41,359 bases of DNA from an uncultured Bacilli bacterium. GTDB lineage: Bacteria; Bacillota_I; Bacilli_A; RF39; UBA660. Shown in pieces: positions 5,351 through 40,538 of this stretch. The notes under the pieces are model-generated. The model did not search any database. It saw only the letters and a program-made list of their open reading frames with translations, and was not told the DNA's origin. A program made the position numbers and the translations under genes. Positions within the stretch are counted from its first letter, which is position 1. Every line of letters begins with the position of its first letter. Location: positions 1 to 41,359 of the forward strand of contig CANQQV010000014.1 in NCBI GenBank assembly GCA_947626095.1, written 5' to 3'.

Positions 5351-5963
5351 ATTGACTAACTAACTCCTTATTAACATCCCAAGCTTTAATTTCTTCTAGA
5401 TTAATTTCAGAAGAATCAACACTACCTAACCAAGCCATTACTTCACTTGGATGATTAAATAATTGATAAGGCTTTTTATAGGTACCTTTGATGAAGATAC
5501 GGCAAAACTCATTATCAGAAGCATGAACTAAGACATTCCAACTTAAACGATCATAACCGGCAGTACAAACTAGTTTATATCTAGCGTATATTTTGTTAAA
5601 ACCGACCATATAATCTTTAGTTTTATTAATTAGTTTATCTTTACGTAAGTTATTTCGACTTGGATCTTCTAGGATACCTAATAATAGGTATTTTTTATAT
5701 AAATCATCAACGGTATTTAAGATTGTTGGTAAGTTAGTAATTATTCTAACTATTTCTTCTTCTGTACAATCAATACACTTTAAAAATAATATTAAACTAT
5801 CTAATTGTTTTAAAACAAAGCTTAAAGTACGACCATTAATTTCTTCTTTACGACCATGATCTAAGTAACTAGATATAGATTCTAAAAATTGTTTTTGCAA
5901 AGAAATATCTAGTTTTTGTAATTGTAACTTAGTATAAAATAAATCTTTAAATGCTTCGTTCAT
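5322..5963 (-). CDS. Hypothetical helical protein with an mTERF-repeat-like segment
   Basis: 213-aa ORF; ATG overlaps the rbgA stop (TAATG) and 3' end overlaps the rnhB start; segment LFLKCIDCTEEEIVRIITNLPTIL. Confidence 0.6.
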   Translation of the reverse strand: MNEAFKDLFYTKLQLQKLDISLQKQFLESISSYLDHGRKEEINGRTLSFVLKQLDSLILFLKCIDCTEEEIVRIITNLPTILNTVDDLYKKYLLLGILEDPSRNNLRKDKLINKTKDYMVGFNKIYARYKLVCTAGYDRLSWNVLVHASDNEFCRIFIKGTYKKPYQLFNHPSEVMAWLGSVDSSEINLEEIKAWDVNKELVSQYEKSHKRTN

Positions 5964-6850
5964 TAATCATCAATCCTATCAAAAGTTATTCCTTTTACTC
6001 TTTCATTTTTTATATCGTCTAAAATGGCTTTACTGACGCGATCATAATCGACTTCACCACCAGAGATAATAGCACCTATTTTACGGCCAATGTGTTCATA
6101 AACACTAACTAAATCGTCATTATCGATTTGATCTAAGTTATATCTTTCTTTTAAGATATTGTGATAATATTTATCAAGTTTATTTAAGATGTGAATAGCT
6201 ACTTTATCAACAGGTAAAACATCTTGAGGAATAGCTGCAAAGGATGATAAGTTTAAAGCTACTTCATCGTTATCTAGTTTAGGCCATAAGATACCTGGAC
6301 TATCAAGTAAAAGAATATTACTTTTAGTTTTTAACCAAGAAAGGTTTTTAGTAACGCCTGGAGTATTACCAGTTAGAGCAACTTTTTTACCGACTAAGCG
6401 ATTAATTAAGGTTGACTTACCAACATTAGGAATCCCAATTACTAAAGCATGTATTTCTTTTTTGGCTAAACCTTTATTTTCTCTTTTAGTTTGAAGATCA
6501 GTAGTAATTTGATGAGTTAAATCGATGATATTTTGAGTACTGTTATTTTCATTTAAATTAGTTAGAAAAACCGAATAGCCTTTATTTTCATAATATTTAA
6601 CCCATTTATTAGTAATACTTAAATCACATAAATCTTTTTTACTCATTATGAGGATACGAGGTTTATCTTTAAGTAATTCATCAATGTCTTTGATTTTAGA
6701 AGATAATGGACATCTAGCATCAACTACTTCATAAACAATATCTATTAAGTCATATTTTTCTTTAATTAGTCTTTTAGTTTTAGCCATATGGCCTGGATAA
6801 AAATTAATGTTTAGTTTATTTAAATTATCGCTCTTGTTTGAATTACTCAT
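5963..6850 (-). CDS. rbgA: Ribosome biogenesis GTPase RbgA/YlqF
   Basis: [46 protein letters not shown]; ATG at 6850 preferred (AGGTGA RBS). Confidence 0.96.
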
Positions 6851-7019: not shown

Positions 7020-7048
7020 TTGACAAATAGGAACATTTGTTTTATTAT
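7020..7048 (+). promoter_or_regulatory. Sigma-A promoter of the sortase-like gene, with a LexA-like box in the spacer
   Basis: TTGACA (7020-7025), 17 bp, TATTAT (7043-7048); GAAC-ATTT-GTTT at 7031-7042. Confidence 0.6.
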
Positions 7049-7125: not shown

Positions 7126-8115
7126 ATGAGTAAAGAGTCAACTAACTCATATATTAAGGGCATTGTGCTAATATTTTTTAGTTTTGTTATATTAGTTACT
7201 ATTGGTTTTAATTTATATGATAAGCCAATTATTAATAATGAAGCAATTAGAGAGTTTAAAAAAGCTAATATTGTTTATGCAACTTTACCTAATGTTTTTA
7301 CAGAAACTTTAGAAAGTACTAATTTTTATAAATTACCTATTAGTCTTAAAGATCTAGTTATCAAAGAAAATGAACAATATCAAATAAATGATTTTATTAA
7401 TAATATGAATATTTTACCACAAGATATTTCTTATTATTATACTTTACCAGAAATGAATTATTATAAGTTACCAGGTACTTATAAGATTCAAATAACTTTT
7501 AAAGATAAAAGAAATAATGTTATTAACAAAGAAACTAACTTAGTTATCGAAAAAGAAGAAGTTATTGAAAAGAAAGATAATACTAAAGAAGAGAAAAAAG
7601 AAGTTGTAGTAAAGAAAGAACAAGTCGTTGAAAAAAAAGAAGTTAAAACAGTAAAGAAAGAGCCAACATTAACAATTGAAGAGCGTATTTTAAATGATAG
7701 TAAAAAAATTGAAGGATATGGTCGCATCTATTTTAACAATTTATATTCAATAGCACTTTATGAACCAAGAACAACTGAAGAAGCACAATACTATGTTGAT
7801 AATAAAGACAGTGGTTCAATTATTAAATATTCTAATATTTCTTTTGTAGCTGATCATGCTAACCAAGGTTTTGATATTATAAAAAAACAAAACATTGGTA
7901 GTTATGTTTATATTAAAAAAGTGGATTATATGGGAAATATAGTTATTGATAAATATGTAGTTAGAGAAAAAATGAATGGTTATAATACGAGACGTCAATT
8001 ATTAACTAATGAAGGAATTGATGTACGTAATACAAATTATCCTTTAGCATTGTATACTTGCAATACGGCTGATGGTTATCACGTAACTATTCTGCTACTT
8101 GATAAAGCAAATTAA
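7126..8115 (+). CDS. Membrane-anchored protein: TM, Ig-like segment, Lys/Glu linker, divergent sortase-like C-terminal domain
   Basis: ATG 7126 with GGGGGA RBS; N-terminal TM; PGTYKIQITFKD; SFVADH...GF and LALYTC match the sortase His and TLxTC motifs. Confidence 0.6.
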   Translation: MSKESTNSYIKGIVLIFFSFVILVTIGFNLYDKPIINNEAIREFKKANIVYATLPNVFTETLESTNFYKLPISLKDLVIKENEQYQINDFINNMNILPQDISYYYTLPEMNYYKLPGTYKIQITFKDKRNNVINKETNLVIEKEEVIEKKDNTKEEKKEVVVKKEQVVEKKEVKTVKKEPTLTIEERILNDSKKIEGYGRIYFNNLYSIALYEPRTTEEAQYYVDNKDSGSIIKYSNISFVADHANQGFDIIKKQNIGSYVYIKKVDYMGNIVIDKYVVREKMNGYNTRRQLLTNEGIDVRNTNYPLALYTCNTADGYHVTILLLDKAN

Positions 8116-38066: not shown

Positions 38067-38176
38067 AAACCTCACCTTTAGTTAATTATAACAAACTCTT
38101 TAATTATTATATAGTAAAATAATTATTAAAAATATTTTTATTTAATGTTATATTTATATTGAAAAGAGGTATATAT

Positions 38177-38644
38177 ATGTTAAGTTATGAAGGTCTTTTC
38201 TTTGATAAAGAAACAGTCGAACTACTTCATTCTTTAGAAGAGAAACAACTAGCCAAAATTAATGATGAAATACATTGTACTTTTAAATATCATCCTAAAG
38301 AAAAAGATGTTTTTAATGATATTGTTGGTAAAAGTTTTGAAATTACGATAATTGGTTATGGTAATGATGGCTTTAATAGTGGTTTTCAAATATCTTTACC
38401 TGATGAATTATTACCATACTACATAAACTACGAAGATGATAATCAATCGCTTTTAAAAACACCCCATATTACATCTTCTTTAGCTGAAAATGCTAAAGCA
38501 GTAAATACTAATAATTTACAATTTACGCCTTTAGAAAAACCAATTAAAATTAAAGGAACATTTGGATATTGGTTAAAAGATAATAATAGTGAATATTTAT
38601 CTTATAAACCATATTATGAAAAACAAAATAATAATGAATTCTAG
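38177..38644 (+). CDS. 2H phosphoesterase-like protein
   Basis: Two HxT motifs (IHCTF, PHITSS) about 60 aa apart; ATG 38177 with GAGG RBS. Confidence 0.65.
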   Translation: MLSYEGLFFDKETVELLHSLEEKQLAKINDEIHCTFKYHPKEKDVFNDIVGKSFEITIIGYGNDGFNSGFQISLPDELLPYYINYEDDNQSLLKTPHITSSLAENAKAVNTNNLQFTPLEKPIKIKGTFGYWLKDNNSEYLSYKPYYEKQNNNEF

Positions 38645-38677: not shown

Positions 38678-39433
38678 TTATTTCATCTTTTTAAATAATC
38701 TTTTGGTATTGGCATTAGTTATTTGTTCTATTTCGGTAGTTGAACATTGTCTTACTTCAGCTAATCTTTGAATTATATATTTTATATTAGATGTTTCGTT
38801 AATTTCACCTCTTAAAGGTTCAGGTGATATATATGGACTATCAGTTTCGATTAAAAATAAATTACTTGGCACAATACTTGCTACTTCAAGTGATTTCTTG
38901 GCCGTTTTATAAGTTATTCTTCCAGCAAAAGAAATATAAAAGCCATTATCTACCAAATATTTTAAAGTTTCTAAATCTGGTTGAAAGCAATGAAAAACAC
39001 AACCATATTTAGGTTTTACATATTTTTCAAAGATATCAATTATTATTTTATTACAATTATTAGAATGAATAATTACGGGCAGATGAAGTTCATTAGCAAT
39101 CATTATTTGACTTATTAAATATTTCTTTTGCTCAGTTAAATTATTTTTAGTACTATCTAAGCCTATTTCACCTATTGCCACTACTTTGGGATGGGACGCT
39201 AAATTATATAAAGAATCTAGTTGTTGATCGGCAATATACAAGGGATGAATACCAATAGATGAGAAAAATTTAGGATTGGAGCTGGCAATACTTATAGATT
39301 CGTTTGAGGTGTTTATATCTAAACCGACATTAATAACACTTTCGATATTAGTATTATTATTTATAGCATTTATATATTTTTGAGGATTATCTAAAACTAT
39401 ACGATTAATATGCATGTGTGAATCAATAATCAT
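38678..39433 (-). CDS. tatD: TatD family DNase
   Basis: IIDSHMH, IGIHP, AIGEIGLD, PVIIHS, VFHCF, IETDSPY; ATG 39433 with AGAAGG RBS. Confidence 0.92.
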   Translation of the reverse strand: MIIDSHMHINRIVLDNPQKYINAINNNTNIESVINVGLDINTSNESISIASSNPKFFSSIGIHPLYIADQQLDSLYNLASHPKVVAIGEIGLDSTKNNLTEQKKYLISQIMIANELHLPVIIHSNNCNKIIIDIFEKYVKPKYGCVFHCFQPDLETLKYLVDNGFYISFAGRITYKTAKKSLEVASIVPSNLFLIETDSPYISPEPLRGEINETSNIKYIIQRLAEVRQCSTTEIEQITNANTKRLFKKMK

Positions 39434-39499
39434 AATTGAACCTTCTATCTGATTATATATTTTTTTATTAGTTATAAACAATTTTGTGGATATAAAGTG

Positions 39500-39528
39500 T
39501 TGTATAAAGAACAAACGTTTGGCATAAT
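39500..39528 (+). promoter_or_regulatory. Sigma-A promoter of the small toxin-like gene
   Basis: TTGTAT (39500-39505), 17 bp, extended TGn-CATAAT (39523-39528); predicted start near G39536. Confidence 0.65.
39508..39521. promoter_or_regulatory. Gram-positive LexA (Cheo/SOS) box
   Basis: AGAACAAACGTTTG, 13/14 match to the B. subtilis consensus CGAACRNRYGTTYG, inside the -35/-10 spacer. Confidence 0.7.
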
Positions 39529-39591
39529 TGCGTTTGGAACATTTGATAGTTGGGTGCTACCTCTATCTTTATGGATGGGAGGTGATGCTTG

Positions 39592-39675
39592 ATGAACAAG
39601 AAAGATTATTTAATCTTTGCTTTAATCATTATCATCTTTTTACTTATAGCATTACTTTTTGTAATTCTAAATTAA
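39592..39675 (+). CDS. 27-aa hydrophobic peptide MNKKDYLIFALIIIIFLLIALLFVILN, putative type I toxin
   Basis: GGAGGTG RBS (39578-39584) 7 nt before ATG; single TM helix; RBS paired in a hairpin; convergent antisense unit downstream. Confidence 0.75.
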   Translation: MNKKDYLIFALIIIIFLLIALLFVILN

Positions 39676-39788
39676 AATGGCACCTAACTCAAACAGTTTG
39701 AATTAGGTGCTACACAAATTATTTGGTAACACTCAACACTGCAATATTGAATGTTCCTTTTTTTTTATTTTACGCAAGTTTCCTTGGC
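39670..39788 (-). ncRNA. Putative antisense antitoxin RNA (~115-120 nt)
   Basis: Own promoter at 39795-39823; ends in a long hairpin (39680-39710) followed by CAUUUUAAUUU; overlaps the toxin 3' UTR. Confidence 0.6.
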
Positions 39789-39794
39789 GTATTC

Positions 39795-39823
39795 ATCATA
39801 TCATAAATGCATATTTTTTACAA
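39795..39823 (-). promoter_or_regulatory. Sigma-A promoter of the antisense RNA
   Basis: TTGTAA (39823-39818), 17 bp, extended TGn-TATGAT (39800-39795). Confidence 0.65.
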
Positions 39824-39965
39824 GTTACTTAATATAAACCGATTTTATTTTTGTAGAAAAGAGTTTATAATTATTTATTTAAAATTTCTAATGATAAAAT
39901 TATACTATTAAAAAGTTCAATTTGATTTCTTGTTGTTATCTCAAATGGCAAGAATACAATAAATT

Positions 39966-40538
39966 TTAATTATTTTGTTTTTCTAAAATATACGTTAGCA
40001 AGACCCCTATTGATCTATCTTCATGAATTTGCTTTTCAATACACATTTTAATTATTTCGTTATAATTTTTCCAAACAAAGCCATCGATTATTTCGTTTTC
40101 TTCTAATTCTTGACCATTTTTTATTATTTTATAATCATTAATTATGAAATAATATAAATCCCATACAATACTTGATCCAGCATAAGATACATAATATAAT
40201 TTGGGATTTTTAATTTCAATTCCAACTTCTTCTTTTACTTCTTTAGCTACTGTATTGTATACTGCGTCTTGTAAAGTATTATCCCTAATTGATTTTTTAT
40301 AGTCTTCTAAATTGTCAAAAACTTTACCACCAGGCAATCTATAGTCAAAGTTTTCCAATTCATACCTATACTCTTTTGATAGTAATATTTCATGTTTGTC
40401 ATTTTCTATAATAGCTCTTATTCCTGGAGGCCTTCTAATAAAAGTTCTTGTGACATTTCGAGTCTTACCATTAATAGTATAATTTTTTTCTTCAGTTAAA
40501 AACTCAAAAATGCCGTTTTCATATAATACTTTTTCCAA
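39966..40538 (-). CDS. Nudix hydrolase with an interrupted Nudix box
   Basis: TTG start with AGGAGG RBS; LPGG...KEVKEEVGI; QELEENEII. Confidence 0.8.
   Translation of the reverse strand: MEKVLYENGIFEFLTEEKNYTINGKTRNVTRTFIRRPPGIRAIIENDKHEILLSKEYRYELENFDYRLPGGKVFDNLEDYKKSIRDNTLQDAVYNTVAKEVKEEVGIEIKNPKLYYVSYAGSSIVWDLYYFIINDYKIIKNGQELEENEIIDGFVWKNYNEIIKMCIEKQIHEDRSIGVLLTYILEKQNN

Follow-up and report, generated by a model that had tools for sequence, protein, structure and literature searches.

The window analysed here, a 41,359-nt stretch of DNA from an uncultured Bacilli bacterium (contig CANQQV010000014.1), carries two convergent and overlapping genes in the gap between a TatD-family gene and a NUDIX gene. 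We consider it likely that they form a chromosomal toxin-antitoxin module of type I, belonging to a family not described before, with a toxin promoter under SOS control. A preliminary description of the gap had listed a promoter, a 27-amino-acid (aa) peptide with a GGAGGTG ribosome-binding site, a 3' untranslated region (UTR) ending in a T-run, a convergent promoter with its terminator, and a LexA box, all of which were recovered in place.

On the plus strand, the toxin promoter (39500-39528) consists of a -35 element TTGTAT (39500-39505), a 17-nt spacer and a TG-extended -10 element CATAAT (39523-39528). It matches the consensus at 8 of 12 positions and was not listed by a simple promoter scan, but can be aligned with promoters from 15 further complete modules of the family described below. 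The 5' end of the putative toxin messenger RNA (mRNA) is placed at 39536-39561, with a start site predicted to within ± 3 nt and a family-conserved 5' end that begins near 39536. A Shine-Dalgarno sequence, GGAGGTG (39578-39584), which is predicted to be base-paired, is located 7 nt before the ATG at 39592. This start codon opens a 27-aa open reading frame (ORF, 39592-39675, stop codon 39673-39675) potentially encoding the peptide MNKKDYLIFALIIIIFLLIALLFVILN, which has a charged N-terminus followed by a single hydrophobic helix. The toxin mRNA would read through a first hairpin, H1, which is the terminator of the antisense RNA, and would end at its own terminator, formed by hairpin H2 (39725-39757) and a run of nine T residues (39758-39766). 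On the minus strand, H2 corresponds to the middle hairpin of the antisense RNA.

The antisense promoter (39823-39795, minus strand) was listed by the promoter scan and includes a -35 element TTGTAA (39823-39818), 17 nt and a TG-extended -10 element TATGAT (39800-39795). It contains no LexA-type site and looks constitutive. The RNA predicted from it (39788-39668, minus strand) would be about 121 nt long, close to the ~115 nt proposed before, and is made up, in order, of a 5' hairpin (39788-39772), H2 and the intrinsic terminator H1 (39710-39680, 14 pairs, with a T-rich tail at 39679-39668). H1 is the sole terminator-like site in the region 39300-40000 (1 versus 0.1 ± 0.4 in shuffled sequences). 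The predicted antisense RNA is fully complementary to the whole 3' UTR of the toxin mRNA and to the final 8 nt of its ORF. It folds into three hairpins at -37.3 kcal/mol (z = -5.85), and none of 200 shuffled sequences folded as well.

Going beyond the preliminary description, the locus was found to be one of four intact modules in its own genome, and to belong to a family that spans many genera and bears the LexA box in about half of its members. The three further full modules are located on C9 (~36.7-37.1 kb), C1 (~83.2-83.5 kb) and C20 (~23.6-23.9 kb), and two antisense-only or remnant copies are also present, including an antisense-only copy at C9:12786-12909. Among 24 other genomes from the genus, a DNA search gave matches in 14; among 16 genomes outside it, there were none. 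The most conserved stretch of the family comprises the antisense 5' hairpin and promoter, and a pattern in the International Union of Pure and Applied Chemistry (IUPAC) code derived from it matched at least 119 stretches in public species genomes. All of them came from uncultured gut metagenome-assembled genomes (with labels such as Bacilli, Erysipelotrichaceae and Tenericutes) of rabbit, goat, rumen, mouse and chicken origin. From these stretches and the source genome, 127 distinct modules were extracted, and all counts out of 127, or out of the 98 with an intact ORF, refer to this set. The peptides fall into five subfamilies of 34, 11, 31, 4 and 17 members plus one unassigned peptide, and the RNA architecture is common to all of them.

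The antisense regions of 123 of the 127 modules were aligned (alignment A1), leaving out L040, L046, L082 and L099, where the hairpin region was absent or aberrant by eye. In the three-hairpin structure, 95.9% of the 2537 alignment cells were paired, versus 84.7% in shuffled alignments (0 of 500 as high) and 24-38% with slid partners, and 406 cells showed double changes versus 117 in the shuffles. Compensatory changes affected 6 of 8 pairs in H2 and all 9 pairs counted in H1; the antisense 5' hairpin is invariant and therefore uninformative on structure either way. The pairs included 254 G-U or U-G cells on the minus strand and only 19 C-A or A-C cells, which would be wobbles on the plus strand, so the antisense fold is selected on the minus strand. 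The TTG of the antisense -35 element is also conserved across the family, 17 nt upstream of the TG-extended -10 element. A search of Rfam gave three matches at E values up to 10, the best with 28 bits versus a gathering score of 90, and all to eukaryotic small nucleolar RNA or microRNA models. A coding role for the antisense RNA was rejected, as 18 of the 127 copies have an ATG-started ORF of 15 aa or more. In many copies (e.g. L012, L025 and L026), a perfect inverted repeat of ~8 bp brackets the antisense -35 element and is followed by plus-strand T residues. This repeat, which is absent from the window copy, could serve as an operator or as an additional terminator for the plus strand.

The ORF is conserved as well. 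A hydrophobic ORF of 20 to 40 aa behind a Shine-Dalgarno site was kept in 98 of the 127 copies. Among ORF pairs of the same length that were at most 25% different, differences at codon positions 1, 2 and 3 numbered 2691, 1512 and 3695, respectively, and the differing codons comprised 2457 synonymous and 3679 non-synonymous cases; this is the pattern of a coding sequence, though the pairs are not independent. A second plus-strand ORF lying over the 3' UTR (39723-39806) was rejected, since an ATG-started ORF of at least 20 aa is found there in just 18 of the 127 copies. This conservation of the ORF and the covariation in H1 and H2, offered as a check in the preliminary description, agree with its proposal of a type I module with a convergent, 3'-overlapping antisense RNA, as does the family-wide comparison as a whole.

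These data also bear on another reading, in which the conserved unit would be a multi-copy, trans-acting or mobile small RNA of the minus strand with an invariant 5' hairpin, and the plus-strand ORF would be incidental. Such an RNA would account for the strong conservation of the antisense 5' hairpin and promoter, for the selection of structure on the minus strand and for the 9 of 127 copies without any toxin part. We regard it as highly improbable in view of the 98 copies that keep the ORF with Shine-Dalgarno site, start codon and coding-type substitutions, of the covariation between the toxin 5' UTR and the 3' hairpin (see below), and of a dedicated plus-strand promoter that appears regulated in about half of the copies.

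The peptide itself resembles no named toxin family, in agreement with the preliminary description. The window peptide matched no Pfam family; among five family peptides, three matched none and two gave only chance matches to SNARE or YqfD (E = 0.06-0.4). With NCBIfam, the family peptides gave chance matches to membrane segments alone, far under the cut-offs, and with PHROGs a single match to a family of unknown function (E = 0.056), which was taken as chance. There was no match in the PDB for the family peptides, and none that was usable in the protein Atlas for the 30-aa peptide of a paralogue. Libraries of this type hold models for TisB, DinQ, Fst/Ldr, Hok and TxpA/BsrG-type toxins.

Covariance model R1, built from alignment A1, scored the window copy at 101.7 bits (39661-39789). 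Within the same taxonomic family, it matched 97 of 149 genomes; the one genome from the other family of the order gave no match. The matches span 57 of 87 genera (G000 counted) and reach up to 19 per genome, in genomes of ~1.0-1.5 Mb. In a class-wide draw, R1 had matches in 6 of the 13 genomes that belong to this taxonomic family, and in none of 137 genomes from 25 other families. The location of the modules differs between genomes. More than one module was present in 12 of 107 loci, as head-to-tail arrays with a spacing of mostly 344-590 nt, and a transfer RNA (tRNA) gene was found within 400 nt of 42 of 123 modules. In the source genome, the C1 copy is located ~80 nt from a tRNA-Thr gene (C1:83549-83623) and the remnant copy abuts a tRNA-Leu gene (C9:38404-38490).

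An intact ORF was missing from 29 of the 127 modules: 12 have lost all of the ORF but its 3' part, 9 have no toxin part, 3 are without promoter or 5' UTR, and the remaining 5, of nearly full length, have a broken ORF or start. All 29 retain an intact antisense gene, although the reverse case would be invisible, since the modules were found via the antisense motif. The toxin 5' part was lost and the antisense gene kept in 24 of the 127 copies, which reads as a sign of a costly toxin.

Control by LexA is suggested by a 14-bp imperfect palindrome (39508-39521) inside the spacer of the toxin promoter, which ends 1 nt before the -10 element. Both LexA (224.5 bits) and RecA (471.6 bits) are encoded in the source genome, as they are in 27 of 27 genomes from the genus. 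Within the genus, the operators of the two genes are near-invariant, one overlapping the lexA -35 element and one lying just upstream of the recA -35 element. From the 8 distinct sites among them, a symmetrised weight matrix was built. It gave the window box a score of 12.6 bits, which ranks 22-23 among 1,615,532 genome positions, and found no other site of at least 8 bits in the region 39000-40300. The box agrees with the genome's own lexA and recA operators, in line with the LexA operator previously proposed for this promoter.

Among the best sites in the source genome, the lexA region accounts for ranks 1, 2 and 9 and a site upstream of recA for rank 4; rank 1 is shared with the C1 paralogue, whose toxin promoter has exactly the 14-mer of one lexA operator. 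Next come sites upstream of a Y-family polymerase gene (rank 5), which is divergent from a DNA-alkylation-repair gene, of two Bro-N genes (ranks 6 and 7) and of VanZ-like (rank 8), RecG-like helicase (rank 13) and MgsA/RarA-like (rank 14) genes; these sites are located at C23:17845, C3:9396, C16:26659, C2:160857, C32:2254 and C3:56095. This gene set is that of a credible SOS regulon, and the matrix is therefore meaningful. Two weaker sites were also recorded. One, of 12.2 bits, is located at 7030-7043 of the window, in the intergenic region that separates a minus-strand GTPase gene (5963-6850) from a plus-strand ORF of 329 aa without a known family (7126-8115). The other, of 12.6 bits, lies at C2:155450, ~110 nt upstream of a small ORF that by eye resembles an excisionase or helix-turn-helix gene.

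Across the family, a box of at least 9 bits is present in the promoter window of 45 of the 98 intact copies, in all five subfamilies, and 42 of the 98 reach at least 12.6 bits. In 40 of the 45 box-bearing copies it ends exactly 1 nt before the -10 element. The density of sites is 46 in 6,838 promoter positions, compared with 3 in 30,108 other module positions and 185 in the whole genome. Because 53 of the 98 intact copies have no box, SOS control would not be a property of the whole family; it appears to be a frequent rather than a universal state. The promoters of these 53 differ from those that bear the box. A different recurrent promoter motif, GTTCG-N-TTGTT, occurs 95-105 nt before the toxin ATG in 16 of the 53 box-less modules (e.g. 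L105, L118, L134 and L145) and in none of the 45 box-bearing ones, with just one other occurrence in the source genome. It may be the site of another regulator or a rearranged half-site.

The window box might also not be a working LexA operator of the toxin gene, being instead a decayed or chance palindrome, the site of some other regulator, or the operator of the divergent tatD gene. The box scores 12.6 bits, compared with 17-18 bits for lexA and recA. Scores of this height are reached at about 20 further positions of the genome, of which several are intragenic, and box-less family members exist, with their own recurrent motif in part. We nevertheless consider this unlikely, as the box is found at the family-typical place before the -10 element and boxes of 17-18 bits occupy the same place in L123, L009 and L147, three of the four A-type relatives checked as closest to it. 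As for tatD, its start lies 75 nt from the box on the other strand. A role as tatD operator was judged unlikely on two grounds: the likely tatD promoter, identified by eye, lies ~30 nt beyond the box, and no TatD match was found near the other loci, so the box travels with the toxin promoter. Overall, the sequences point to a new type I toxin-antitoxin family that is probably SOS-controlled in about half of its copies, including the window copy.

The predicted structure of the toxin mRNA adds a further feature. The 231-nt mRNA (39536-39766) has a folding energy of -72.4 kcal/mol (z = -8.4), which none of 200 shuffled sequences equalled, and in both the minimum-energy and the centroid folds its nucleotides 1-26 pair with both arms of H2 (39725-39757). 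This 5'-3' helix was also predicted for the C9 and C1 paralogues, and it is present in the minimum-energy fold of 80 of the 90 family mRNAs whose start could be guessed. Read as a sequence, the leader resembles the antisense RNA and not the plus-strand hairpin. Cognate duplexes between leader and 3' end average -31.5 kcal/mol, compared with -11 ± 3 for shuffled leaders; mean values run from -23 to -31.5 kcal/mol for pairs within a subfamily and from -9 to -23 kcal/mol for pairs across subfamilies. In 44 diverse mRNAs, the long-range helix, whose definition from the window sequence biases the test towards it, had 83.7% of its cells paired versus 74.5% in shuffles (0 of 500 as high) and 37-50% with slid partners. 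Double changes were seen in 146 cells versus 58 in shuffles. The local plus-strand H2 hairpin is about equally supported (81.9% of cells paired) and cannot be distinguished from the long-range helix; both may form, at different times. In the window copy, the Shine-Dalgarno site has an unpaired probability of 0.05. The family mean is 0.15 for the full-length mRNA, 0.15 for a mimic of the antisense-bound form and 0.17 for the 3'-trimmed form, that is, the site is paired in every state modelled. Antisense binding and 3' trimming (by 45 nt, in silico) were considered as ways to release it and made no change in the modelling; translational control by the antisense RNA is accordingly not claimed.

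Several known systems share part of this design. As in tisB/istR-1 and dinQ/agrB of Escherichia coli, the module would combine a single-helix peptide (27-29 aa), a LexA-repressed toxin promoter, an RNA antitoxin promoter without LexA site and a structured, inert primary transcript. It differs from both in showing no sequence similarity to them, in having a LexA box of the Gram-positive type and in forming a multi-copy family. IstR-1 is divergent from tisB and pairs in its 5' leader, whereas the antitoxin described here is convergent and overlaps the 3' UTR. The latter arrangement is that of txpA/RatA, bsrG/SR4, bsrE/SR5 and yonT/SR6 of Bacillus subtilis, in which the genes are likewise convergent, the toxin is small and hydrophobic, its ribosome-binding site is sequestered, and an antisense RNA of ~100-200 nt overlaps the toxin mRNA at the 3' end. 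These four systems sit on prophages or prophage-like elements, in contrast to the present module, which matched no phage, plasmid or viral contig, and no Rfam or protein family links it to them. By analogy, they provide the likeliest mechanistic model, namely duplex formation followed by ribonuclease (RNase) III-type decay (abstract of PMC5848175).

The predicted closure of the mRNA between its 5' and 3' ends, with a sequestered ribosome-binding site, would be a feature in common with hok/sok and with AapA1/IsoA1. In hok, the full-length mRNA is closed by 5'-3' pairing with its ribosome-binding site sequestered, the antisense RNA targets the 5' leader, and activation occurs by 3' trimming. In the present family, by contrast, the antisense RNA would target the same 3' hairpin that the 5' end pairs with, and the leader resembles the antitoxin. 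Ldr/Rdl and Ibs/Sib of E. coli are also multi-copy and form head-to-tail tandem arrays of complete modules; they belong to a different phylum, lack sequence similarity to the present family and have a different antisense geometry. In geometry the module is like the 3'-overlapping systems of Bacillus, in its predicted regulation like tisB and dinQ, and in its predicted fold-back like hok, but in sequence it is like none of these. Two reviews (PMC11951105 and PMC8309996) and one research paper (PMC11264685), in their passages on LexA and SOS, name as LexA-controlled type I loci only tisB, dinQ, symE and hokE, all from E. coli, and no Bacillus type I system. A literature search of a limited collection (titles and abstract starts, with full text for type I toxin, SOS box and Firmicutes) found no Gram-positive case of an SOS-controlled type I system.

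From these elements we propose the following course of events. In undamaged cells, toxin transcription would be repressed by LexA bound between the -35 and -10 elements, where its operator sits. Upon DNA damage, RecA-stimulated cleavage of LexA would release toxin transcription, and the burst of mRNA may outrun the antisense RNA, as in tisB/istR-1. The plus-strand mRNA of ~230 nt would encode the 27-aa single-helix membrane peptide, which is the presumed toxin. The ~121-nt minus-strand RNA would pair with this mRNA in vivo via the two common hairpins and lead to its decay, as in the 3'-overlapping systems of Bacillus; decay rather than a translational block is envisaged because the Shine-Dalgarno site is paired in every modelled state. 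The full-length mRNA would close on itself, its 5' 26 nt pairing with both arms of the 3' hairpin. As the Shine-Dalgarno site is predicted to be paired too, the primary transcript probably remains inert in translation and would need a further step to activate it.

A more tentative extension, which we hold as possible but doubtful, is that the leader is a copy-like mimic of the module's own antitoxin. It would close the SOS-induced mRNA into a ring-like reservoir protected from both RNases and antitoxin, leader and antitoxin would compete for one site, and the family would be the first LexA-wired type I family outside enterobacteria. No type I system with such built-in decoy logic is described in the literature passages covered.

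The module could be real and its peptide not a toxin. SOS-induced small membrane inhibitors of cell division are known from other bacteria, and a 27-aa single helix under predicted LexA control could be a regulator of the SidA, YneA or SosA kind, its level trimmed by the antisense RNA. We think this improbable. Up to 19 copies in a genome of ~1.2 Mb, tandem arrays, five diverged subfamilies and 24 of 127 copies with the 5' part of the ORF deleted and the antisense gene kept are better suited to a selfish or addictive module than to a housekeeping regulator, and 53 of 98 copies have no box. The usual place of such an inhibitor, adjoining lexA, is moreover already taken. A 45-aa ORF with one hydrophobic segment is divergent from lexA (L027:1180-1317, minus strand, which is C3 of the source genome), with LexA-type boxes in the common intergenic region; YneA, SosA and similar SOS-induced inhibitors of cell division are encoded at this position in other Bacillota.

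Several points weigh against a SOS-controlled toxin-antitoxin module. The -35 element of the toxin promoter is weak, with 3 of 6 consensus positions. The window box falls below the lexA and recA operators, the matrix that scores it rests on 8 distinct sites from two genes only, and more than half of the intact copies have no box. The family members are kin, and counts overstate their independence; copies were found via the antisense 5' motif, which would miss toxin-only copies, and the search pattern partly fixed the antisense -10 element, though not the -35. The about equal support for the local H2 hairpin and the paired Shine-Dalgarno site in all modelled states also count here, as does an estimated contamination of 7.9% in the source genome.

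The source genome is a metagenome-assembled genome of 1.6 Mb in 34 contigs, with 28% G+C. The gap that holds the module is flanked by the TatD-family gene (38678-39433, minus strand, 226 bits) and the NUDIX gene (39966-40538, minus strand). This setting is not common to the closest relatives; near the other family modules, no TatD homologue and a single Nudix homologue, at L041, were found. A 161-aa ORF between a methyltransferase gene and tatD (38159-38644, plus strand) has no Pfam family (best E = 0.076). A run search for the locus returned seven DNA runs from rabbit or other gut metagenomes, in two studies, and no RNA run. No match to the locus was obtained by blastn in phage and plasmid collections, nor to the family motif in viral contigs, and a role of the module in the maintenance of an island or prophage found no support. 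A role in persistence is speculation.

If the proposed module is confirmed, a Bacillota family with an independent LexA operator would mean that membrane-toxin bursts coupled to DNA damage are recurrent and not an enterobacterial oddity. The high-scoring LexA-type sites together offer a first sketch of the SOS regulon for this uncultured lineage. So much selfish or regulatory RNA cargo is unexpected in genomes as small as 0.8-1.6 Mb. The family constitutes a large natural experiment: its hundreds of copies fall into five subfamilies, some members have the operator and others do not, and both tandem arrays and orphan antitoxins occur. The covarying 5' leader and 3' hairpin provide a concrete and testable RNA mechanism, for which heterologous expression would be feasible though the hosts are uncultured.

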